Shown here one piece after another: positions 1,502-49,253 of a stretch of DNA of 64,000 nt (position 1 is the stretch's first letter; each line of letters opens with the position of its first letter). Source of the stretch: Candidatus Doudnabacteria bacterium (GTDB lineage: Bacteria > Patescibacteriota > Doudnabacteria > UBA920). A model generated the notes under the pieces. The model saw only the letters and a list, made by a program, of their open reading frames with translations, was not told the DNA's origin and did no database searches. Made by a program: the position numbers and the translations under genes. Location of the stretch: contig CAVYGQ010000001.1 of the NCBI GenBank assembly GCA_963768175.1, positions 446,305-510,304 on the forward strand. Reading direction: 5' to 3'.

Positions 1502-3355
1502 TTACTTGTTAGCCAAACTTTCCTGGCTCTCCTGGATTTCCAAAAGCTGCTTGGGGTCGGTGGTAATAATCTGGTCTTCCACGTAGGACGCGTAAATTTT
1601 AATGGCCGCGTGTTTTAACCCCGCGAAAAATATCCCCTCGCCAACTTCGCTTTCAAGTAGCAGATATTTTTCGCCTTCGGTTAAAAAGAAAGTCTCGGCA
1701 ACTACGTTTATGGCCGCCGGGCTCTGCTTAAGCAGCATCTGGATGGAAGAGTTGGTAACTATCGGTTTGCCGTAAGGACTGGCCAGAAAATCGGCCACGT
1801 CCTGCGTAATGGTGGTCAAACCAAGATAATATTTGCGGGCGCGCTTGGCAATGCCGAACAGGAACCTCGCGCTGTCTTCGTGCTGCATCAAAATCCAGGC
1901 TTCGTCCACCGCCAAGATGCGCTTTTTAAGCTCTGAGCGCACCATATTCCAAATATAATTTAAAATAATATACATAGCTATAGGCCTTAACTCCTCTTCC
2001 AAATCGCGAATACTAAACACCACCAGCTGGTTGTTCAACACTACATTAGTCTGCTGGTTTAAAAGCCCGCCAAAAGTGCCTTCGGTAAATTTTGTCAGGC
2101 GCTGGCCTAAACTTTCCGCTCCGACCATATTGTTTAAAATTTCCACCAAATCGTTCATAGTCGGATATTCCAGGCCGCGGAAATCCGCCAAATCCGGCGT
2201 GACATCTTTTTTGGCGTAAGTCTGCCAAATCGCCTTATCCATCAGCGCTTCTTCCGTGGGGTTTAGCTTGCCTATCATCAAACTAAACAACCCCAAAAGG
2301 TTAATAACCGCGGTGCGCAAAACGTCGGCGTTGCTTTCACCTTCAATAGCCACAGGGAGGTCAAACGGGTTTATCCGCGAAGCCGAATTCAGCGATACGC
2401 TTAAATAAGTACCACCCACGGCCGCAGCCAAGTGCTGGTATTCGTTTTCCGGATCGACGATAATGACTTCGGTGCCGATCATCAAGCTGCGCAGCACTTC
2501 CAATTTTACGGCATACGATTTTCCGGCACCGGATTTGGCAAACACCACGGAGTTGGCGTTTTCCATGGCAAAACGGTCAAACAAAATCAGGCTGTTGTTG
2601 TGGCGGTTAATGCCGTATAAAATGCCGTCGTTACTGGTTAAATCCGACGACACGAAAGGAAAACAAGAAGACAAGGGGCTGGTATTCATATTGTTGGCTA
2701 CATCCAGTTCGTCCAGCCCGAGTGGCAAAGTGGAATTCAGCCCGTTTTGGGTTTGCATCAACGCGCGCTTGGTCACGATCAATTTGGAACCGAGCGAGCT
2801 CTCCAGGGTGCTGGAAAATTTATCCAGCTCCTTTAAGTCAGTGGCATAAATTGTAAAATACAAAGCAAAACGAAAATACTTTTCGGTACCCTGCATCAGG
2901 TTGTCCCGCAAACCTTCCACGTCTTTGTAGGCGGTCTCCAGCATCGGATCGCGCACCATGCCTTTTTCCTGGTTAATGGCCATCTGGCTACCGAGCTCCC
3001 CGACCTTGCTTTTAAGTTTTTTTAAAATGTCCGCCGAATCTATAGGGTAAATAAACATGGACAAATCCAGCGCGCCTTCGGCCTGGATAATAAAAGACAG
3101 CCAGTTGCTGGAGAGGAACCTTGGATAAGCCAGCACAAAAAAACTCCTGCCGAATTTGCCGTTAAGCTCAAAATGGGAGCTGTCAAATTTCAACGAAGCT
3201 GGGGCTATTAAATCTTTTAGCGTAGTTAAACCTTCGCGGTAGGTTCTGTCCAAATCCCCAAGACTTGAGCTCAAACTACGTTCGGTTTCGGCTTCTTTCA
3301 GGCTTTGTTTTCTTGCTTCCAGCTCTTGGGGAGTGATTTTTGAAAAAATGCTCAT
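1502..3355 (-). CDS. virB4: VirB4/TraC/CagE-family type IV secretion ATPase
   Basis: 617 aa with Walker A FAKSGAGKS and Walker B ILAVDEAW. The N-terminal domain is typical of Gram-positive VirB4 homologues. Confidence 0.8.
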   Translation of the reverse strand: MSIFSKITPQELEARKQSLKEAETERSLSSSLGDLDRTYREGLTTLKDLIAPASLKFDSSHFELNGKFGRSFFVLAYPRFLSSNWLSFIIQAEGALDLSMFIYPIDSADILKKLKSKVGELGSQMAINQEKGMVRDPMLETAYKDVEGLRDNLMQGTEKYFRFALYFTIYATDLKELDKFSSTLESSLGSKLIVTKRALMQTQNGLNSTLPLGLDELDVANNMNTSPLSSCFPFVSSDLTSNDGILYGINRHNNSLILFDRFAMENANSVVFAKSGAGKSYAVKLEVLRSLMIGTEVIIVDPENEYQHLAAAVGGTYLSVSLNSASRINPFDLPVAIEGESNADVLRTAVINLLGLFSLMIGKLNPTEEALMDKAIWQTYAKKDVTPDLADFRGLEYPTMNDLVEILNNMVGAESLGQRLTKFTEGTFGGLLNQQTNVVLNNQLVVFSIRDLEEELRPIAMYIILNYIWNMVRSELKKRILAVDEAWILMQHEDSARFLFGIAKRARKYYLGLTTITQDVADFLASPYGKPIVTNSSIQMLLKQSPAAINVVAETFFLTEGEKYLLLESEVGEGIFFAGLKHAAIKIYASYVEDQIITTDPKQLLEIQESQESLANK

Positions 3356-3362
3356 AAGTTTT

Positions 3363-3565
3363 CCGATTCGGATTTACGGATTGTATCCGGATCAACGGAT
3401 ACCTGCGGATACTTTTTAGTAAGTTTTAAAATTATTTTTGGTTTAAATTATACCAGTTTCTTTTCATAAAACGACCTGCTTTTCTGCTTGCCTCTTATAT
3501 AAGTACCCGTGGTTATCTGTAAATCCGGATTGTCCCATCCGTATATCCGGATCGGGTTTATTCGG
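3363..3565. repeat. MITE-like element, family C (ATCCGGAT-containing arms at 3363..3412 and 3518..3565 are inverted copies of each other)
   Basis: Left arm is cggatttacggattgtatccggat. Right arm is its reverse complement, gtaaatccggattgtcccatccgtatatccggat. A related copy sits inside rsmA at 17587..17697. Confidence 0.55.
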
Positions 3566-4241
3566 AAATTTTAATGTCTTTCATCTGTGCCGGATCAATT
3601 AACGGGGCAGCGTCAAAATTATAGGAATTGTAATACAACTGGATAATCTCCTCGGTCTTTAGCCTGACACCCCTCACGCCAATGCCGGAAAGGTTAGAAA
3701 GTATCGCCATAACCCTTGTGTCCAATTTTTCTTTGGCTTTCTCAAAATTCTCTATTTTTTTGGCAATCTGTTTGGATTTTCCGCCGCCAAAAATGCGGGA
3801 AAAAAATCCTGCGGCGGGGGGAAAAATGCTCTCTCCCAAAGGAATTATGATATAAAAATTTTTATTCATAATGCTGGCGTTCTCAATAAGCCGGGCTATA
3901 AATTCCGTGTACTCAACGGTCTGAACCCTCAAAAGCTCGTTGGTTTGCTTTTCGGCCAATCCCTTGAGCTTTTCCAGGTAACCGCCAATTTCCATTTTGC
4001 GGCTTTGCATAAGAATTTGGACTGAGAAATCCAAGCTGTTTAAAAACCGCTGAAAATTAAAAATAATGGAATCCTGTTCGTCCTGGCTCTTTAAGTCAAA
4101 ATTGGTGCTGGACACGGACAAAATCGCCCTAAGTGTCCCGTCGTCCGCCACCACGGTGTCGTTTTTTATTTCACTAAGCCGTAAAAAACTTTGGGTGGTT
4201 TTTCCCAGCGGCTTTTTCTTGTTTTGCATTTCAAGCTTCAT
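3558..4241 (-). CDS. Hypothetical protein in the T4SS-like cluster
   Basis: The ORF track gives 3558..4298, but its first 19 codons (MAALGAQDDAT...) are the translation of a family-D repeat half copy. The start probably lies at the MKLEMQNKKK methionine. Confidence 0.5.
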   Translation of the reverse strand: MKLEMQNKKKPLGKTTQSFLRLSEIKNDTVVADDGTLRAILSVSSTNFDLKSQDEQDSIIFNFQRFLNSLDFSVQILMQSRKMEIGGYLEKLKGLAEKQTNELLRVQTVEYTEFIARLIENASIMNKNFYIIIPLGESIFPPAAGFFSRIFGGGKSKQIAKKIENFEKAKEKLDTRVMAILSNLSGIGVRGVRLKTEEIIQLYYNSYNFDAAPLIDPAQMKDIKISE

Positions 4242-4268
4242 AGTAATCGCAAATATACAAATAAGAGT

Positions 4269-4313
4269 GGCGTCATCCTGAGCCCCGAGTGCAGCCAAGG
4301 GGCGAAGGATCTC
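4269..4313. repeat. Family D repeat, half copy
   Basis: ggcgtcatcctgagccccgagtgcagccaaggggcgaaggatctc. Confidence 0.6.
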
Positions 4314-4596
4314 AAAATTCAGATGATAAGTCTTTCCATTCCGGGTTTATACTATTAATTAAGTTAATTTTCTTTTGCCTTGTCCAACCCTTTATTCTTT
4401 TCTCTTCCGCGATGGCTTCTAGTGCGGTTCCAAATTCTTTATAATAAACAAGTTTTGTTACATTATACTTTTTCGTAAAACCCTCTACTAACTTATTCTT
4501 ATGCTGATAATTCCTGTTTACGATACTATTGGTTATACCTGTATAAAGAACCGTATGAACTTTATTTGTCATTATGTAAACATAAAACGATTTCAT
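4312..4596 (-). CDS. Small GIY-YIG nuclease-family protein
   Basis: FYVYIMTN...LYTGIT...R...H motif pattern, 94 aa. Confidence 0.7.
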   Translation of the reverse strand: MKSFYVYIMTNKVHTVLYTGITNSIVNRNYQHKNKLVEGFTKKYNVTKLVYYKEFGTALEAIAEEKRIKGWTRQKKINLINSINPEWKDLSSEF

Positions 4597-5220: not shown

Positions 5221-5364
5221 GGCGTCATTCTGAGGCCTGAATAAATCTGCCTTTCGACTTTGCTCAAGGCACCCTGAGCGAAGCCGAATGGGTGAAGGCC
5301 GAAGAATCTCTTTGCCCTAGATTTTTAGATCCTTCGGTCGGATGCACTCCCTCAGGATGACGCC
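5221..5364. repeat. Family D MITE-like element (long copy)
   Basis: ggcgtcattctgagg ... cctcaggatgacgcc termini. Confidence 0.7.
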
Positions 5365-12177: not shown

Positions 12178-12213
12178 CATGTTAGCATAAAATGCGGCCG
12201 CATTTTTTACTAA
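12178..12213. repeat. Family E palindrome (TTAGCATAAAATGCGGCCGCATTTT..), NotI-core hairpin
   Basis: Related copies at 12777..12816 and 47180..47213 flank gene ends. Confidence 0.7.
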
Positions 12214-12224
12214 CAAATTATCAA

Positions 12225-12776: not shown

Positions 12777-12816
12777 AATGTTAGTATAAACTGCGGCCGC
12801 ATTTTATGTCAACACC
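12777..12816. repeat. Family E palindrome
   Basis: atgttagtataaactgcggccgcattttatgtcaac. Confidence 0.65.
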
Positions 12817-12903: not shown

Positions 12904-14850
12904 TCAGCGAAGATTAAGTTGGGTTGCGGGACCGCGGGTTTGGATAACGGGCTTAGCGGTAAACACCCCGGCCACGGCCGGAGCTACAGAAGGCGAATTA
13001 AATCCCATCGTGCCTTCAATAACGTTTACTGTTCCTAAAACAACTGTGGAAACTAGATTTTCATTAGAGTCGTATATTTGGGCAGCTAAAGTATTAGACC
13101 CGACGGTAAAATTACTATCTATGGTGATAGTGTAGCCGCTCATCTGGTCGGCGGCTACGTCCTGGTAATTTTGCCCATTAACGACAAACGTTACGGTTCC
13201 GTCCGTAGGAAGGTTGGATGACGAAATGGGAATCTGGTCTCCCATACTATACTGGCTCTTTAGGCCTCCACTAACTGATATTTGGGGCGTAAGGGTGCTT
13301 GTGGCAATGTTATTACCGGAACCCTGCGCGATAAAACCAACCGTGGCATTAACGGCTTTATTTTCATTAATCAATGCGGTTTTGGCTCCGGCGCTGGCGC
13401 CGCCCAAAACCATACTCGTGCCGATTTGGGAAACTATGCCGGAAATGATATTCACAAAAGCCGGCAGGTTGCTACTATTGTATTGGGTTAAATCGCCCCC
13501 AACGGCTTTAAACATTGCGTCAATGCCCTGATTAACCAAAACCGCAGGTGAAGATATTGCTTCACACAAAACTATTGCCGGGTTGGTGTCTGTGCTGCCG
13601 GAGCTAGAGGTTAAAGCTTGCGGGGCATTGGTCCACGCCAGTGTAGCCGCATCTACGTCAGCTTGGGCCTTAGCGAGATCGGCAGCCGGGACATTCTTCC
13701 CTGCTTGCACGGCAGCCGTAAGGTTGTCCAGTACATTTTGGCGGTCCAGCATTTTGGCTTCCAAAGCTTGCGCTTGGGCGTCAATTTGTTTTTGCTGGGT
13801 CAAGGCCCCGGCGCAATTTACCGGCGCCTTATAACCGCTGCCCTGGCTAATCTGCTGTTGGGTAGTGGCCAAAGAAGCGGCGCGCGACTGGTTCACGCCG
13901 CCAACATAAGCTGTTTGCAAATAATACGGGTTGGCGCTGGGACTACCCATGGCCGCCATCTGTCCGTAAAAATTCGGGCTGGCCGGATTAATGGCCGACG
14001 GGTTAAAGCCCAAAGCCGCATTGGCGGCCACAAATATTCCGGGCTGGATTTGCGTGCGGAATAAAGGATTGCTTAAAATCGCGCGCGCCATTAGCTGGTC
14101 CTGCGCGTTAGGAAAATTCTCGCGGATAAACTGGTTATCATACATCAAGGTGGCCGCGGAATCTATATACTGCTTTAAGTTGGTAATTTTATAGTTTTGG
14201 ACCAAATGAGTAACCAAAGCATCGGCAATGGCTTTACTGGTTTGCAGCAAAATGCTAATCAGTAAAGTTTTCCAAAATCCTTGGTTGGCGTTATCTATCT
14301 GGGCCACCAAGTCGCCCTGCTTTTTTGTGTAAGTCGCGATGCTAGATTTAATCTGGGCTTCGTCTTGCTCCTTCATATTGCTGACATAAAGGCTGGTTGC
14401 CGCGAGTTTGGCAGCGGCAAGAGTTGTTAATTGCAAGTTGGCACAAATCAAAAAAATGCTATAAGCATCATTCAAAACTTCCATAGCTGCCAACCCCGTA
14501 CTATTCCCCGTTGGGCTTAAGACAGCTAAAGTAGAGTTTGCAACATTAGTTTGTACAAAAATCTGCTCTGCCACTTGCACTTTTGTGAGGCAAGCTTTAT
14601 AAGCTATAAATGGCGCGGACAATCCCGCTATTTCCGAGATATTTAGCGCCATACCAGCCAATCCTCCGGGATTATTACCGGCATTGGCATCGGCACTCGG
14701 TACTGCTTGCGCTAAAACAATCCCCGGCCAAAAGGCAAGCTGGCTGAAAATTAAAAAACCGGCAATGATTTTTTTTATTTTACCCCGCACCACTTTTTGA
14801 TGGTTATTAGGATTACTCAATTTTAAAATTTGTTCAGAATATTTTGCCAT
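12904..14850 (-). CDS. Hypothetical secreted protein with signal/TM anchor and Ala/Gln-rich coiled-coil segment
   Basis: 648-aa ORF with a hydrophobic N-terminus. Confidence 0.5.
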   Translation of the reverse strand: MAKYSEQILKLSNPNNHQKVVRGKIKKIIAGFLIFSQLAFWPGIVLAQAVPSADANAGNNPGGLAGMALNISEIAGLSAPFIAYKACLTKVQVAEQIFVQTNVANSTLAVLSPTGNSTGLAAMEVLNDAYSIFLICANLQLTTLAAAKLAATSLYVSNMKEQDEAQIKSSIATYTKKQGDLVAQIDNANQGFWKTLLISILLQTSKAIADALVTHLVQNYKITNLKQYIDSAATLMYDNQFIRENFPNAQDQLMARAILSNPLFRTQIQPGIFVAANAALGFNPSAINPASPNFYGQMAAMGSPSANPYYLQTAYVGGVNQSRAASLATTQQQISQGSGYKAPVNCAGALTQQKQIDAQAQALEAKMLDRQNVLDNLTAAVQAGKNVPAADLAKAQADVDAATLAWTNAPQALTSSSGSTDTNPAIVLCEAISSPAVLVNQGIDAMFKAVGGDLTQYNSSNLPAFVNIISGIVSQIGTSMVLGGASAGAKTALINENKAVNATVGFIAQGSGNNIATSTLTPQISVSGGLKSQYSMGDQIPISSSNLPTDGTVTFVVNGQNYQDVAADQMSGYTITIDSNFTVGSNTLAAQIYDSNENLVSTVVLGTVNVIEGTMGFNSPSVAPAVAGVFTAKPVIQTRGPATQLNLR

Positions 14851-14881
14851 ATAGGATAAAAACTAAAAAGTGGTGTGGGGT

Positions 14882-15739
14882 TTATTGGGAAACATCGCCA
14901 TTGTTAAAAGTATTTAAAAGATTTTGAGAATTGTCGGCGCTTGCGGAATTGCCCGAAGCAGCCGACTGCTGGATAGGCTGGCCGTTTGAGTCAACATACA
15001 AAGAAGAGCTCGGGTCCAAAGATCCAAACTTTTGCGCAATGGAAACATTCTCGGTATTTAAGTCCTGCTGGCTTTTTATAAACTGCATCAAATTTTGGCT
15101 AACCAAAGTCGGGTTGCTGTCGGCCTGCGAAAAATTTTGCAACAGGTTAATTGCGGAAGTGTACTGGATGATTTTTAACTTTTGCAGTTTAACCAAACTC
15201 TGCGGCACGCTAAGCTTTTGCAACGCGTCGCGGACGCCAATTAATTTTTGTGCCTGCTGGTCAATTTGGCTTTGGTCGTCGGAAGTCAAAGCTGTTTGAA
15301 AGGCGGCGTTATCTACGGGATTGAGTTCTATTTTCTGCGCCTGAGAAAAATATTTTGTAATCGCGTCGCCCGAGTCTGGCACCTGGCTGACCTGGACGCT
15401 GTCTAAAGACAGCTGCACGTCTTGCGTGCTTGCCGCCAAAACCGATCCGGCGTCCACCGGAGAAACCGTGCCGTCGTCGTTAATGATGCTCGGACCTTGG
15501 TCGGTGCTGGCGCCTAAAACTTGTGGCTGTTGGTCGCTAATCGGAGGAACGTATGCATAATAGTGCGGCACATTCTGGTCGCCTTGTGCCGCATTCTTTT
15601 TAAAACTAAAAAGATCCGGCTTTTCCATCCACGACATTCCCAAGACCAAAACCATGGTCATCATTACGGCGCCAAAATGCCCCCAATGAATTGGCGACTC
15701 AATTTGAGGTGGTTGGGTTTCGAAATTTAAATCACTCAT
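14882..15739 (-). CDS. Hypothetical single-pass membrane protein, Gln/Ser-rich
   Basis: 285-aa ORF with an N-terminal TM. Confidence 0.5.
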   Translation of the reverse strand: MSDLNFETQPPQIESPIHWGHFGAVMMTMVLVLGMSWMEKPDLFSFKKNAAQGDQNVPHYYAYVPPISDQQPQVLGASTDQGPSIINDDGTVSPVDAGSVLAASTQDVQLSLDSVQVSQVPDSGDAITKYFSQAQKIELNPVDNAAFQTALTSDDQSQIDQQAQKLIGVRDALQKLSVPQSLVKLQKLKIIQYTSAINLLQNFSQADSNPTLVSQNLMQFIKSQQDLNTENVSIAQKFGSLDPSSSLYVDSNGQPIQQSAASGNSASADNSQNLLNTFNNGDVSQ

Positions 15740-17025: not shown

Positions 17026-17099
17026 GGCGTCATTCTTAGGGAGTGCGGCCGACCGAAGAATCTAATGATGAGATTCTTCACTGCGTTCAGGATGACGCC
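17026..17099. repeat. Family D MITE-like element
   Basis: ggcgtcattcttagg...ttcaggatgacgcc. It overlaps the last codons of rsmA. Confidence 0.7.
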
Positions 17100-18013
17100 A
17101 TAATGGTATCGACTAACTCAATCCATTCTTCAATTGAAAGTTCCTGCGGTCTAGCCGCGGGATTTATTTTAAGCTGCGATAAAATTCCAGCGACCGAATT
17201 TTTATCCAGGGCCAAATTATTTACCAGCGTATTGTGGATTTGTTTGCGCTTGCCGGCAAAACAGGCTTTGACAATTTTAAAAAATCTTTTTTCATCCGAC
17301 AAAATGTATTTGGGTTCTTTGAATAAATCTATTTTTACAATCGCGCTGTCCACTTTTGGCGCGGGATAAAAACTTTTAGCTAGAACAGTTTGGACAATTT
17401 CAGGCTGGCCAAACAGCTGTATCGAAATTGCCAAAATGGACAAGTCCCCCGCTTTGGCGCAAATGTTCCTGGCAACTTCTTTTTGGGTAAGTATGGTTAT
17501 ACCGGAAGGTTTTGCTTTTGTGGCCATTAACATTTGCAGAATTTTCCCGGTAATGTAATACGGGATGTTGGCAACAACTTTATAATCCGATCCGGATTTA
17601 CGGATTCTATCCGGATGATCCGGGTAACTACGGATGGCGCGATCTGTAGATATCCGCAGATCCGGATTCTCATCCGCAGATCGGGATCGGAATGCCGCCT
17701 GAAAATCAAACTCCAAAGCATCGGCGATTTCAAAACGGAAATTTTCAGGATAATCTTTTTTTATTGATTTGAGGATCGGGAAAAACTTCGGGTCTTTTTC
17801 CACGCTCAACACAAAGCCGGCTCTCTGGCAGAGCAAACGGGTTAGGTTGCCGATGCCCGGACCAATTTCCAAAACCGCATCATTAGGCGAAACCTCCGCG
17901 GCATCCACAATGTCCTGTAAAACCAAATCGTCAATTAAAAAATTCTGCCCGTAGGTGAAGTTGGATTTGAGGTTATAAGAGCGCAAAAATTTTTTTAATT
18001 GATCGGTATCCAT
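17087..18013 (-). CDS. rsmA: 16S rRNA (adenine1518/1519-N6)-dimethyltransferase RsmA/KsgA with an in-frame repeat-derived insertion of about 25 aa
   Basis: YGQNFL..EIGPGIGNLT..VEKD..NIPY motifs. The extra segment RSRSADENPDLRISTDRAIRSYPDHPDRIRK is encoded by the family C repeat at 17587..17697. Confidence 0.85.
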   Translation of the reverse strand: MDTDQLKKFLRSYNLKSNFTYGQNFLIDDLVLQDIVDAAEVSPNDAVLEIGPGIGNLTRLLCQRAGFVLSVEKDPKFFPILKSIKKDYPENFRFEIADALEFDFQAAFRSRSADENPDLRISTDRAIRSYPDHPDRIRKSGSDYKVVANIPYYITGKILQMLMATKAKPSGITILTQKEVARNICAKAGDLSILAISIQLFGQPEIVQTVLAKSFYPAPKVDSAIVKIDLFKEPKYILSDEKRFFKIVKACFAGKRKQIHNTLVNNLALDKNSVAGILSQLKINPAARPQELSIEEWIELVDTIMASS

Positions 18014-18031
18014 AGAAGTTTCTGTTTTTCC

Positions 18032-18124
18032 GGCGTCATCCTGAGTCCGAATGCATCTGAGGACGAAGGATCTCTATCCAAGAATGAGATCCTTCGGTCG
18101 GATGCACTCCCTCAGGATGACGCC
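18032..18124. repeat. Family D MITE-like element
   Basis: ggcgtcatcctgag...cctcaggatgacgcc. Confidence 0.75.
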
Positions 18125-18131
18125 GGCTCAC

Positions 18132-20441
18132 TTAAGTTAATTCATACTCCAATTCTTCCCCGTCATCGCGAAAATGCTCCTTGGCCATTCCCTTTAAAGC
18201 TACCTTATCGCGCGGCAAGACTTTTAAAATCCGCGAGGGCTGGCTAATTTGCACGTTGCCAAAAACGCGGCGGTTATGCGTATAGACCAAAAACAGGCGC
18301 TTGCGCGCGCGCGTCAGACCAACGTAAGCCAGGCGGATTTCTTCACTAAGCTCGCTTGGGTCTATCAGGCTGCGGCTGTGCGGCAATATCCCCTCTTCCA
18401 AGCCGACAAAAAACACGTTATCAAATTCCAAACCTTTGGCGGAATGAAGCGTCATTAACGTTACTGCGTCTTTGCTTTCGTCTTTTTGGTCAATTTCCGA
18501 AATGAGCGCGACTTCTTCCAAAAACTCCCGCAACGCTTCCCGCCAAGGTGTATTGCCGAACTTGTGGGCGACATTAACCAACTCTTCAACGTTTTCCCAG
18601 CGCGTTTCCCCTTTTTCGCTGCCGTCGCGCAAATATTTTCCATAACCGGTCTTTTTTAAAATGAGCTTCATCAGCTCCGGCAAAGTGAACTTCCCGTCAA
18701 ATTCGGAAAATCCCTCAATTAGCCCAAAAAACTCCTGTGCCGCCTGCCAGGCTTTAGGCTGGATTTTAACCCCCACACCAAATTTATTTTTAGATACAGT
18801 TAAGGCCAATTCAGATAAATTCTGATCTTTAAAATCGTCTGATTGATTAAAAGATTTGGTGTGGGGGTGAATATCGGCAAAGGCAATTCGGAAGTCGGAA
18901 GTCGGAGAATCCGCTTTTCCGATTTTCCGATTTTCCGATGACGCAATATTGGAATTATACTGATTAAAGTTTAAAATAAAATCCCTAATTACCGCATACG
19001 ATTTATCCCCAATCCCACGCGGCGGCTCGTTAATTACCCGCCTAAGCGAAACCAAGTCGCGGAAATTCAAAGTCAGGCGCAAATACCCCAGCAGGTCTTT
19101 TATTTCCTTGCGTTCGTAAAATTTTAACCCGCCGACAATTTGGTAAGGGATGGAAGCTTCTATCATAACCTCTTCCAAAGCGCGCGACTGCGCGTGGGTC
19201 CGGTATAAAACGCAAAACTCTTTTAAGCTTTCGTGCTTTTTGGATAGTTGCGGGATAAACCCCCGGCCGAATGAAGATGGGTATTTGGCCTGCAATTTTT
19301 TTGCTTTGATAAATCTATCAAGAATGGAAAAAGGCTTGGGTTCGGCCTGATCAAAATCCGCCTCATACGTTGAATCCCCGCTTCCGCGTCCGTCCGCGTT
19401 AAATTCCGCGTCCGTCCGCGTGGATAATTTGATTATCCACCGCGCCACAAATTCGGCCTCGGCGCGCTCGTCTTCCTCGCAGGTTAAAATGATTTTTTCT
19501 CCCTGGACGTTTTCGGTCCACAAAGTTTTGGGTTTTTGCTCCGGGTTCATTTCAATAACTTTTTGCGCGGCATTCAAAATATTTTTGGTACTGCGATAAT
19601 TCTGCTCCAGCTTAATTAACAAACCTTCGGGATAGTCTTTTTCAAAATTTAAAATATTGGTAATGTCGCTACCGCGGAATTTATAAATGCTTTGGGCGTC
19701 GTCCCCCACCACAAAGATATTGTGATGGATTGCCAGCAAAGACAGCAACCGATACTGCACCGGATTTGTGTCCTGATATTCGTCCACCAGCACATAGCTG
19801 AACTTTTTTTGGTATTTTGCCAGAACTTTAGAGAAATTCTCAAAAATTTTTACCATAAGCAAGAGCAGATCGTCAAAGTCCAAAGCGTTTTGTTTGTACA
19901 ACGCGTCCTGATAACGCGCGTAAACCTCGGCCAGTTTTTCGCGCATCGGCGATTCTAATCCTAAATTTAAATCTGCCGGAAGCTGCAATAAATTTTTGGC
20001 GCGCGAAATCAGGGCGCCAAACAAAGACGGCGGCATTTTTTTGCTGTCTATCCTTAAATCCTCCAAAATTTCCCGCAAAACTTTTTGCTGGTCGTCGGTG
20101 TCAAAAATTACAAAGTCGGAAGCGTAGCCCAAGACCGCAATCTCACGGCGCAAGATTCTGGCGCAAACCGAATGGAACGTGCCCATGGTCAGGCTTTCGG
20201 CTGCACCTTTATAGCGGGCCAAAAGTTTTGCCACCCTGCTCCTCATTTCCTTGGCCGCCTTGTTGGTAAAAGTCAGGGCTAAAATGTGCTCGGGTTTCAC
20301 TATGCGCTTATCTATAATATAAGCAATGCGGTACGTCAAAGTTTTGGTCTTCCCGCTGCCCGGCCCGGCCAACACCAAAACCGGCCCCAAGGGAGCTTCT
20401 ACGGCCTGTCGTTGTTTGTCGTTTAGAGAAGATAGATCCAT
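18132..20441 (-). CDS. uvrD: UvrD/PcrA-family ATP-dependent DNA helicase
   Basis: 769 aa. GPGSGKT Walker A and the usual UvrD motifs. It contains small in-frame tandem repeats at 18886..18940 and 19382..19421. Confidence 0.85.
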   Translation of the reverse strand: MDLSSLNDKQRQAVEAPLGPVLVLAGPGSGKTKTLTYRIAYIIDKRIVKPEHILALTFTNKAAKEMRSRVAKLLARYKGAAESLTMGTFHSVCARILRREIAVLGYASDFVIFDTDDQQKVLREILEDLRIDSKKMPPSLFGALISRAKNLLQLPADLNLGLESPMREKLAEVYARYQDALYKQNALDFDDLLLLMVKIFENFSKVLAKYQKKFSYVLVDEYQDTNPVQYRLLSLLAIHHNIFVVGDDAQSIYKFRGSDITNILNFEKDYPEGLLIKLEQNYRSTKNILNAAQKVIEMNPEQKPKTLWTENVQGEKIILTCEEDERAEAEFVARWIIKLSTRTDAEFNADGRGSGDSTYEADFDQAEPKPFSILDRFIKAKKLQAKYPSSFGRGFIPQLSKKHESLKEFCVLYRTHAQSRALEEVMIEASIPYQIVGGLKFYERKEIKDLLGYLRLTLNFRDLVSLRRVINEPPRGIGDKSYAVIRDFILNFNQYNSNIASSENRKIGKADSPTSDFRIAFADIHPHTKSFNQSDDFKDQNLSELALTVSKNKFGVGVKIQPKAWQAAQEFFGLIEGFSEFDGKFTLPELMKLILKKTGYGKYLRDGSEKGETRWENVEELVNVAHKFGNTPWREALREFLEEVALISEIDQKDESKDAVTLMTLHSAKGLEFDNVFFVGLEEGILPHSRSLIDPSELSEEIRLAYVGLTRARKRLFLVYTHNRRVFGNVQISQPSRILKVLPRDKVALKGMAKEHFRDDGEELEYELT

Positions 20442-29889: not shown

Positions 29890-29897
29890 TGGAAAAA

Positions 29898-29928
29898 CAG
29901 GGGACACCTCTGGAAGAGGTGTCCCCTG
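29898..29928. terminator. Family A palindrome (CAGGGGACACCTCT ggaag AGGTGTCCCCTG) acting as a hairpin after the gene end, followed by TTTTC
   Basis: Perfect 14-bp inverted repeat directly after the stop at 29889. Confidence 0.55.
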
Positions 29929-29938
29929 TTTTCATTGA

Positions 29939-32336: not shown

Positions 32337-32343
32337 AATACAA

Positions 32344-32380
32344 CAAAGAGACTCTTTGCGCGACGCAAAGAGTCTCTTTG
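32344..32380. terminator. Family F hairpin (CAAAGAGACTCTTTGCGC / GCGCAAAGAGTCTCTTTG)
   Basis: Inverted repeat after the hppA stop. A second copy after glnII at 49206..49242. Confidence 0.6.
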
Positions 32381-32467
32381 TATAACTATTTTATATAAAT
32401 AAAAAACGAGCGGCTACAGTGACGCAGTCGCCCGGGGTGGCCAGCCCCATAAGTAATAGCCAATGCT

Positions 32468-46161: not shown

Positions 46162-47163
46162 ATGATAAAAAAACCGTCAAGTTTATATCACCCCCTAACC
46201 CCCTCTTACATTAAGAGGGGGAAACTCTTGGTTGTCGGCAGCGTGGCGTTTGACAATATACAAACGCCGTTTGGGAAAATAAGCAAAACTTTGGGCGGCA
46301 GCGCCAGCTATTTTTCTTTGGCCGCGAGTTTTTTTACCAAGCCTTACGTGGTGGCCGTGGTGGGGAATGATTTTACCTATAAATACAAGGAAATTTTAAA
46401 AAAGAAAAAAATTGACTTATCGGGATTAGAAACAACCAAAGGCCAAAGCTTTCACTGGGGCGGCAAGTATAGCTTTGATTTAAACAACCGCGATACCCTG
46501 TTTACGCATTTAAACGTCTTTGAACATTTTAAACCCAAACTTTTAGAACACCATAAAACCGCCTCTTATGTGTTTTTAGGTAACATCCACCCAGAACTTC
46601 AGCTTGACGTTTTGAGCCAAATAAAAAAACCAAAACTGGTGGGGCTGGATACCATGAATTTTTGGATAGAAAAAGCGCCACAGGAGCTGGCTAAAGTGTT
46701 AAAGCTGACGGATATTTTTGTGATAAACGATTCCGAAGCGCGGGAACTTTCCGGAGAACATAACTTGATGAAGGCCGCCAGAAAAATAATCAAAATGATG
46801 CCCAAAGGCAGAGGTGTCCCCTCTGCAACAGAGGGGACACCTCTGCCACCCGTGCTAATTATCAAGCGCGGGGAATATGGACTGCTGATGTTCGGCAAAA
46901 ACCAGATTTTCCACTTGCCCGGCTTCCCGCTTGAAGACGTTATAGATCCCACCGGCGCGGGCGACAGCTTTGCCGGCGGACTTTTTGGCTACCTAAGCAA
47001 AACCGAAGACAGCTCCTGGGAAAACCTAAAACGAGCATGTGTAGCCGGTTCGGTATTAGCCAGTTTTGGCGTGGAAAAGCTCGGCACCCAAAGGTTACAA
47101 GAAATAACCCAAAACGACATTAACGAGCGTTTTGGGGAATTTAAAAAATTGACAGATTTTTAA
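46162..47163 (+). CDS. PfkB-family carbohydrate kinase (ribokinase-like) carrying an in-frame 41-nt family-A palindrome (KGRGVPSATEGTPLP)
   Basis: DPTGAGDSFAGG signature near the C-terminus. The perfect palindrome GGCAGAGGTGTCCCCTCTGCAACAGAGGGGACACCTCTGCC at 46807..46847 stays in frame. Confidence 0.8.
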   Translation: MIKKPSSLYHPLTPSYIKRGKLLVVGSVAFDNIQTPFGKISKTLGGSASYFSLAASFFTKPYVVAVVGNDFTYKYKEILKKKKIDLSGLETTKGQSFHWGGKYSFDLNNRDTLFTHLNVFEHFKPKLLEHHKTASYVFLGNIHPELQLDVLSQIKKPKLVGLDTMNFWIEKAPQELAKVLKLTDIFVINDSEARELSGEHNLMKAARKIIKMMPKGRGVPSATEGTPLPPVLIIKRGEYGLLMFGKNQIFHLPGFPLEDVIDPTGAGDSFAGGLFGYLSKTEDSSWENLKRACVAGSVLASFGVEKLGTQRLQEITQNDINERFGEFKKLTDF

Positions 47164-47179
47164 GCTTACTAAAAAATTT

Positions 47180-47213
47180 GTTAGCATAAAATGCGGCCGC
47201 ATTTTATGCTAAC
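47180..47213. terminator. Family E perfect palindrome GTTAGCATAAAATGCGGCCGCATTTTATGCTAAC after the kinase gene
   Basis: 34-nt perfect inverted repeat, 17 nt after the stop. Confidence 0.5.
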
Positions 47214-47339
47214 AGTCCTGTTTAACAAATATTATAAACGCCGTGGCAGGTGTTTTTTTGTTTTGACCAAAACTATTATCAAGAATACAATAAACGTATG
47301 TTGGCCTTCTGGCCAGCAATACATCGCTAGCTGATGCTA

Positions 47340-49193: not shown

Positions 49194-49205
49194 AATAACC
49201 AATTA

Positions 49206-49242
49206 ACAAAGAGACTCTTTGCACTGCGCAAAGAGTCTCTTT
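49206..49242. terminator. Family F hairpin CAAAGAGACTCTTTGCACTGCGCAAAGAGTCTCTTTG followed by TTTTTTT. Bidirectional between glnII and proA
   Basis: Inverted repeat plus U-tract. Confidence 0.75.
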
Positions 49243-49253
49243 GTTTTTTTAAT

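Follow-up and report, generated by a model that had tools for sequence, protein, structure and literature searches.

Rickettsia palindromic elements (RPEs) are inserted in frame in housekeeping genes and are read as an extra peptide, at positions thought to be compatible with fold and function (PMC10969869). Other compact bacterial repeats include the MITEs, or miniature inverted-repeat transposable elements (Correia, ERIC, Nezha and others), which are small and non-coding with terminal inverted repeats and hairpin potential, and the repetitive extragenic palindromic sequences (REPs) and their paired forms (REPINs), palindromic doublets with a long hairpin that accompany one small gene, that of a REP-associated tyrosine transposase (RAYT). 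Free-standing homing endonuclease genes (phage T4 seg/mob, GIY-YIG, HNH) are tiny nuclease genes that sit in the spacers of conserved operons in some relatives and are missing from others. Here we describe a repeat, family C, from a 64,000-nt stretch of Candidatus Doudnabacteria bacterium DNA (assembly GCA_963768175.1, contig CAVYGQ010000001.1, positions 446,305 to 510,304; hereafter the window), where one copy lies within the 16S rRNA dimethyltransferase gene rsmA and another in the spacer upstream of a virB4-like gene. Family C probably represents the inverted arms of a small selfish nuclease-gene element of Doudnabacteria-like Patescibacteria, of which the window holds two non-autonomous derivatives. 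Elements of this general kind, RPE-like and MITE-like, are already known; the nuclease-gene parent, and an insertion hot spot at the RsmA loop ahead of the NIPY motif, appear to be undescribed.

Family C is built from CGGAT/ATCCG units. There are 10 sites for the octamer ATCCGGAT in the window where 0.74 would be expected, a count that none of 100 shuffled sequences reached, and six of the ten sites fall within the two loci. The remaining four (367, 964, 8875 and 10346) are isolated singletons and were excluded from the family. A window-wide 5-mer count found clusters of at least four CGGAT/ATCCG units only at 3369 to 3552 and 17585 to 17676, the two loci that an earlier note, made from the letters of the DNA, had named as sharing repeat units. 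The boundaries given there needed adjustment: both loci are real, but copy A is better placed at 3361 to 3556 than at 3363 to 3565, and copy B at 17587 to 17691 (17586 to 17692 when the outer T and A are counted). The features of the two loci are the following.

3361 to 3556, minus strand: copy A, an internally deleted family C element of 196 nt, filling the spacer from the stop codon of the TraC-like gene (3558 to 3560) to the start codon of virB4 (3353 to 3355)
3503 to 3556, minus strand: 5' arm of copy A (alignments A1 and A2)
3415 to 3502, minus strand: A+T-rich core of copy A (alignment A2), with a local alignment to the end of the GxxExxY gene
3361 to 3414, minus strand: 3' arm of copy A (from the alignments), ending 5 nt upstream of the virB4 ATG
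1502 to 3355, minus strand: virB4/TraG-like ATPase gene, downstream neighbour of copy A (PF19044, E = 7e-27)
3558 to 4298, minus strand: TraC-like gene, next to copy A on the upstream side (its orthologue in the related genome L102 has the Pfam TraC-like label)
17587 to 17691, minus strand: copy B, an arms-only family C element of 35 codons in frame in rsmA; RsmA residues 108-142, FRSRSADENPDLRISTDRAIRSYPDHPDRIRKSGS
17640 to 17691, minus strand: 5' arm of copy B in the parent element's sense orientation (alignment A1), translated FRSRSADENPDLRISTD
17587 to 17639, minus strand: 3' arm of copy B, translated ...YPDHPDRIRKSGS in the frame of the GxxExxY tail ...DPDxIRKSGSE
17087 to 18013, minus strand: host gene rsmA/ksgA, 16S rRNA A1518/A1519 dimethyltransferase, 308 amino acids (PF00398, E = 7e-49; KsgA matches in the PDB)

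Each copy is an imperfect palindrome that is predicted to fold into a single long hairpin, beating dinucleotide shuffles (copy B, z = -3.2 as DNA and -4.9 as RNA; copy A, z = -6.4 as RNA). Inverted terminal repeats are present in both, with arms 77-89% complementary, and common to all four arms is the sequence CCGATyCsGATnTnCGGAT-n(3-6)-ATCCGGAT. This shared consensus, together with alignment A1, in which the four arms match copies from other genomes column by column, bears out the earlier proposal that the ~200-nt element of the virB4 spacer has inverted arms made of the units seen within rsmA. At 105 nt (copy B) and 196 nt (copy A), both copies are shorter than ~500 bp, with no complete open reading frame (ORF) of their own. 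The tetramer GATC, scarce window-wide (114 observed, 245 expected from base composition), occurs six times in the 105 nt of copy B and twice in copy A. Rfam, applied to the window at the gathering threshold, returned two tRNAs and nothing else.

A scan of one genome per species with a 21-base arm pattern returned 18 loci. Nine are in metagenome-assembled genomes (MAGs) of Patescibacteria, labelled Doudnabacteria, Patescibacteria or Saccharibacteria, and have the same multi-unit arm structure, so that further copies of the repeat do exist. The other loci, from high-G+C genomes (Burkholderia, Sphingomonas, Thauera and others), showed no element structure and were treated as chance matches. Eight copies align over both arms, with the consensus TTCCGATCCGGATTTACGGATnTTATCCGGATCTnCnGATAACTACGGATA ... 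ATCCGTAGTTATCCGTAGATCCGGATTGTCATCCGTAGATCCGGATCGGAA. The MAGs CAZFQP01 and JAMDAY01 carry two or three family C loci each, and arms-only units of similar build are found in unrelated contexts in several genomes. A plasmid collection searched by distant blastn with copy A gave no match, nor did a viral contig collection scanned with the arm pattern. RNAalifold analysis of seven arms-only copies gave no usable covariation, the pairs being mostly invariant with double changes in only two and the internal repetition spoiling the register.

At L011 and L003 the arms stand apart and enclose an ORF of ~125 amino acids. The full-length element, ~480-500 nt long, consists of an arm, a ~125-amino acid GxxExxY/PDDEXK_3 nuclease gene and an inverted arm. 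The enclosed genes of L011, L003 and L106 scored 42.6-46.9 bits with Pfam PDDEXK_3 (PF13366; curated cut-off 22) and 42-46 bits with NCBIfam GxxExxY (TIGR04256; curated cut-off 35). Formal inverted repeats 375-450 nt apart were detected in five full-length elements, including L107 and L112, which have divergent genes and matching divergent arms (TTCCGTAG units; ATTCGGA units) that still end in CCGATCC / GGATCGG. The packing can be very tight, as at L106, where the order is stop codon, 5 nt, arm, gene, arm, 6 nt and the ATG of an HtrA-like gene. The association was also tested in reverse, by seeking relatives of the L011 protein without reference to the DNA arms. A translated 3' arm, ...RETRKxPQxSxDPDxIRKSGSE, forms the C terminus of about 15 of the 39 closest (within P0122-P0137), and the frame that gives this tail is the one that gives ...PDHPDRIRKSGS in RsmA. 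The contigs that bear these relatives are nearly all under 5 kb in length, as would be expected of repeated sequence. A related fusion was seen at L006 (5434 to 6237), where the C terminus of a HAD-like phosphatase, ...PKRILRETRKNQQLSADPDSIRKSGSE, corresponds to the last GxxExxY codons plus the 3' arm joined to the host gene.

Residues E57, D68 and K80 are invariant in 39 of 39 GxxExxY sequences, and position 78 is D or E in those inspected (e.g. VDLK, IEIK). These residues fit the D...(D/E)xK motif, which makes it likely, on the basis of sequence, that the arm-enclosed protein is an active nuclease. It had no match in a PDB sequence search or in PADLOC, and PHROGs returned an unannotated family only. 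Literature searches for GxxExxY, PDDEXK_3 and palindromic insertions in Patescibacteria found no earlier description or functional study.

The virB4 locus was found in three states, anchored on the virB4 start codon. In L102 the site is empty, the TraC-like gene and virB4 being separated by only 7 nt, TAAcctcactATG. In the Doudnabacteria contig L013 a GxxExxY gene and 3' arm lie 6 nt upstream of the orthologous virB4, the 5' side being lost at the contig end. In the window the site holds the internally deleted copy A, the minus strand of which pairs with full-length elements at the 5' arm, the 3' arm and the gene end, with the remaining gene missing. The pairing at the gene end involves ~30 nt of the core beside the 3' arm (about 3417 to 3452), which match the last GxxExxY codons (YIKPKRIL) at the collinear position with a local score of 32-33 against a shuffled mean of 19 (sd 2.6). 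A TGgTATAAT motif can be read by eye in the minus strand of the core; a consensus promoter scan of copy A found no full sigma-70 -35/-10 site. Copy A had been thought to supply the last codons of the upstream gene. The TraC-like protein ends in KDIKISE* in the window and in KDVKIVE* in L102, where the spacer is empty, and the element begins one base past the stop codon. The C terminus is therefore native and not element-supplied.

These site states argue against an explanation in which the arms are immobile and serve GxxExxY genes as regulatory or structural flanks (as operator arrays, as a hairpin that stabilises the mRNA or as a processing site), the sequence in rsmA having been acquired from such a flank by recombination or gene conversion. 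Such a role would suit several observations. In most copies only 3-14 nt separate the 3' arm from the ATG downstream of it, so that the arm occupies the position of a ribosome-binding site, and, speculatively, its end, GGATCGGA, might double as the ribosome-binding region; seven of seven full-length copies are oriented like their neighbours; and the arms co-vary with the gene subfamily. However, the site upstream of virB4 is empty, full or deleted depending on the genome, and the arms-only units in unrelated contexts in several genomes and the copy within an essential coding gene also speak against fixed flanks. We regard this explanation as improbable.

A different insertion was noted in the same operon. 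At 4312 to 4596 on the minus strand, a 94-amino acid GIY-YIG nuclease gene (PF01541, E = 6e-16) lies between the PrgI-like and TraC-like type IV secretion system genes. In L102 these two genes are ~20 nt apart, with no GIY-YIG gene between them, and the gene looks like a second free-standing nuclease-gene insertion.

Copy B interrupts a protein that is otherwise intact. The motifs of RsmA are complete, with invariant G51-G55 in the S-adenosylmethionine-binding GxGxG motif and invariant N149-Y152 in the catalytic NIPY motif. Bacillus subtilis KsgA pairs with RsmA residues 6-110 and 143-301, leaving 32 residues of RsmA opposite 6, in agreement with the earlier observation of an extra in-frame stretch between the DAL and NIPY motifs. 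Residues 108-142 are those that the element encodes, as calculated from the coordinates, so that the repeat DNA coincides with the unalignable stretch. The length difference is also real among orthologues, as close relatives free of the insert have a 10-residue loop here. An AlphaFold model of RsmA built on 37 orthologues had a mean predicted local distance difference test score (pLDDT) of 83 and a KsgA-like fold, with template modelling (TM) scores of 0.88-0.91 to B. subtilis KsgA (PDB 6ift and 6ifw). Residues 111-138 had pLDDT values below 50, the rest of the model being confident, and form a loop between helix 104-109 and strand 144-149, which ends in N149-I-P-Y152. Copy B is accordingly placed by the model in a predicted disordered loop ahead of the NIPY strand. 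Judged by the standard topology of class I methyltransferases, this strand should have its N-terminal end facing away from the catalytic pocket.

Family C elements are present at the same site in the rsmA orthologues of L100, L102 and L104 (75, 66 and 64% protein identity, respectively). Copy B is open in three of six frames, whereas intergenic arms-only relatives have stops in nearly all frames, and the rsmA copies are therefore a selected subset. The 36-amino acid insert peptide gave no match at E <= 0.001 among 1.84 billion representative sequences, a query too short for the search to have power.

The conservation of the element was compared with that of its host gene between the window and L100, with the following result.

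rsmA flanks: nucleotide identity 77-81%, third-position identity 59-61%
rsmA element: nucleotide identity 94%, third-position identity 86% (30/35)

The third-position identity of the element is ~3 standard deviations over the flank rate by a binomial estimate, and the element is more conserved than the synonymous sites of the rsmA gene that carries it. This pattern should not result from the neutral drift of a passenger since a single ancient insertion. The excess conservation could stem from an arrival at the site that was later or repeated, from conversion against other copies, or from a constraint on the DNA or RNA.

High conservation, together with a frame free of stops in four orthologues, might suggest that the insert is an adaptive, lineage-specific extension of RsmA, for example for contact with an unusual ribosome in the Candidate Phyla Radiation (CPR), the palindrome being incidental or a leftover. 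We consider this very improbable. The conservation extends to third codon positions, pointing to DNA or RNA rather than protein; the insert is predicted to be disordered; the same DNA is found in non-coding spacers and as the flanks of genes; and 51 of 120 close orthologues do without an insert, while others carry unrelated sequence in its place.

The loop that receives copy B was examined in the 120 closest RsmA orthologues, as the segment between DFQ and YKVVANIPY. Its length was distributed as follows.

Loop of 12 residues or fewer (mode 10, typically FFKEQGYKS): 51 of 120 orthologues
Loop of 13-17 residues: 11 of 120 orthologues
Loop of 18-51 residues: 58 of 120 orthologues

The 58 long loops carry unrelated inserts and fall into ~27 sequence clusters. 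In a neighbour-joining tree of the remaining RsmA sequence, read for leaf order only as the tree is not robust, insert types are interspersed with empty forms. All inserts for which DNA was at hand (L020, L023, L102 and L104) form strong hairpins, with z values of -2.4 to -8.8; the last, that of L102, is a near-perfect hairpin. The rsmA insert of L111 contains AATTCGGAGCATTCGGATAGAGTTCGTAGGTTAGGATCGGA, 41 nt that are almost identical to the 3' arm flanking the GxxExxY gene of L112, so that the RsmA loop has been reached by no fewer than two arm variants of this class of element. A metagenome scan for RsmA relatives was of little use here, returning four close loci only, the others having identities of at most 44%.

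The crowding of inserts at this one loop raises the question of whether it is an active target. In a homing-like scheme, the nuclease would recognise the conserved DNA beside the codons of YKVVANIPY (motif IV), and intergenic copies would arise likewise at other conserved junctions. This would account for inserts at exactly this loop in nearly half of the orthologues and in so many peptide clusters, for the presence of two different GxxExxY arm variants, and for an insert that ends 1-2 codons ahead of the most conserved DNA of rsmA. The excess identity of the element over its flanks between the window and L100 would fit recent or repeated arrival, and the near-perfect L102 hairpin also favours the scheme. 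Nevertheless, the neighbours of full-length copies are diverse (HtrA, a triosephosphate-isomerase-like protein as judged by eye, virB4, GH1, a P-type ATPase and SmpB), which looks like dispersal; many inserts at the RsmA loop come from unrelated repeat families; and other loops of RsmA and of UvrD are also variable, favouring a selection filter. Site-specific insertion of this type is therefore, in our judgement, unlikely, though less so than fixed flanks or an adaptive extension.

Variation at those other positions was observed as follows. The closest RsmA orthologue (L100, 10001 to 11038; P0002, 345 amino acids) carries a further in-frame insert, ~37 residues long (PLRRFSAEAEKNYRGSSSEALAKEDVKASGGKPQNFRP), in a different loop, after ITGKILQMFMT. 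An insert type found in RsmA orthologues, AEFNAEKRGSG..., recurs in frame in the uvrD gene of the window (18132 to 20441). This gene contains lineage-specific in-frame stretches, especially at ~19350 to 19410 and 18762 to 18875; one stretch, TDAEFNADGRGSG, is similar to the inserts in the RsmA proteins P0003, P0005 and P0058, and a palindrome with CCCCCACACCAAAT arms, related to 14767 to 14896, is translated KFGVGVK. The UvrD proteins of relatives have other inserts at the same positions. With an insert type common to RsmA orthologues and UvrD, and with UvrD and a second RsmA loop varying between relatives, in-frame repeat insertion looks widespread in these genomes.

We propose that the dispersed element has arms of ~50 nt, with CGGAT/ATCCG units ~8 nt apart and the ends TCCGATCC...GGATCGGA, and that the full-length form inserts in tiny spacers between host genes. 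The PD-(D/E)XK protein would recognise the CGGAT-unit arms, or their hairpin, and move them. Copy A would have arisen from a full-length element by internal deletion of most of the gene. Copy B would be an arms-only form of 35 codons, read in the sense frame that is also used for the C-terminal tail of the element protein; it may be tolerated because it lies in a surface loop at the N-terminal end of the NIPY strand, probably off the active-site face, and RsmA carrying it presumably stays active. Such short forms could be mobilised in trans by the nuclease from a full-length copy elsewhere in the genome. In gene-dense genomes, insertions might survive only in spacers and permissive loops, and the many unrelated inserts of the RsmA loop would then reflect repeated insertion with selection for permissive sites. 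A broader version, in which GxxExxY/PDDEXK_3 proteins, a large family, are the nucleases of an unrecognised class of miniature arm-gene-arm mobile elements, the arms-only forms colonise spacers and, in frame, the surface loops of essential proteins in ultra-small CPR genomes, and the RsmA loop is a preferred, re-used landing site whose DNA is homogenised by nuclease-driven turnover, is put forward more tentatively, as a possibility that we do not favour at present.

Several observations weigh against the selfish-element interpretation. No consistent direct repeat indicating target-site duplication was seen at 10 or more junctions, which have A+T-rich flanks and palindromic ends that obscure short duplications; the chemistry could therefore be transposase-like, homing-like or structure-specific cutting. 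The 64-kb window has only two family C copies and no GxxExxY ORF or full-length element. Copy A could have decayed in place and is therefore uninformative about the movement of short forms. The rsmA insert is not a plain addition to a 10-residue loop, since ~7 native residues have apparently been replaced. The function of GxxExxY proteins is listed as unknown in a survey of PD-(D/E)XK proteins (PMC3424549). Finally, in a more distant CPR genome (L113, 3001 to 3393), a GxxExxY gene with 51% identity lies exactly between uvrD and rsmA, its stop codon overlapping the rsmA ATG (ATGA), with no convincing inverted arms; the arm-gene-arm layout may therefore be limited to one subfamily.

The resemblance to RPEs lies in the ~100-150-nt palindromic units in frame and in the small, gene-dense genomes. 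It is clearest for copy B, with 35 stop-free codons in a conserved gene whose product is otherwise intact and is modelled as KsgA-like. However, the phylum is unrelated, and a sequence relation was not evident, no formal comparison having been made. RPEs have no known partner gene, whereas the arms of family C are shared with a PD-(D/E)XK nuclease-gene element, and family C was seen here in frame in one host gene only, rsmA.

In common with MITEs, family C has an internal-deletion relation to a longer element with the same ends, the capacity to fuse to host ORFs, dispersed copies, and presence/absence polymorphism at the virB4 site. The earlier designation of copy A as a MITE thus holds in that it is a miniature, non-autonomous form with a larger gene-bearing relative. 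It is not proven in the strict sense, given the lack of detectable target-site duplications and a parent encoding a ~125-amino acid GxxExxY/PDDEXK_3 protein rather than a transposase of the DDE, HUH or serine type. The arms also differ from those of MITEs in being arrays of a 5-nt unit. Homing endonuclease genes, in turn, have neither inverted arms nor arms-only derivatives; for family C, what is known here comes from presence/absence at orthologous sites.

The REP/REPIN-RAYT systems share with family C the palindromic doublets, the long hairpin, one small gene flanked by repeats and a low to moderate copy number. Mobilisation of family C by a RAYT, an IS200-like Y1 transposase, would be in keeping with the two inverted halves that make the hairpin, with GTAG/CTAC motifs within the arms, and with a RAYT-like gene (PF01797, E = 7e-7) in L102. 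The repeat at the flanks of this gene, which even breaks into it in frame, is another one (GTAGGGACAGGTCGCGACCTGTCC...) and not family C. No Y1 gene adjoins any family C copy, and the gene that the arms enclose encodes a protein of the PD-(D/E)XK fold rather than the Y1 HUH fold. RAYT mobilisation is largely refuted by these pairings, and we give it hardly any credence. The RAYT-like (Y1_Tnp) gene itself, at 5250 to 5900 of L102, is flanked by GTAGGGACAGG...CCTGTCC repeats, one copy of which lies in frame in its own coding sequence (GVFVGDGRDRPVQK).

If the selfish-element interpretation is correct, selfish DNA in protein-coding genes, best documented in Rickettsia, extends to the CPR, and GxxExxY proteins acquire a testable role in the binding or cutting of CGGAT-unit arms. 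One loop of a universally conserved rRNA methyltransferase would accept dozens of unrelated inserts, and could be used as a natural insertion-tolerance site and as a marker of repeat-element activity in uncultivated lineages. For annotation, the element would account for odd C-terminal tails (...DPDxIRKSGSE) and for length variation of CPR proteins.

The window contains further palindromes of other types. From the uvrD stop to the rsmA start, the spacer (~18030 to 18127) is taken up by a ~100-nt palindromic element of a different repeat family (GCCGGCGTCATCCTGAG ... CTCAGGATGACGCCGG). Three perfect palindromes that are almost identical to one another (GTAGAGGTGTCCCCTCTGC / GCAGAGGGGACACCTCTAC), of a REP-like type that has a 5' GTAG, lie at 313 to 351, 29894 to 29932 and 46807 to 46847. 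The palindrome TGTTAGCATAAAATGCGG/CCGCATTTTATGCTAACA is present in three copies (12180 to 12215, 12779 to 12814 and 47179 to 47214), and a fifth type, ACAAAGAGACTCTTTGCG, was found at 32343 to 32381 and 49205 to 49245. The tetramer CCGG is over-represented in the window (428 against 172).

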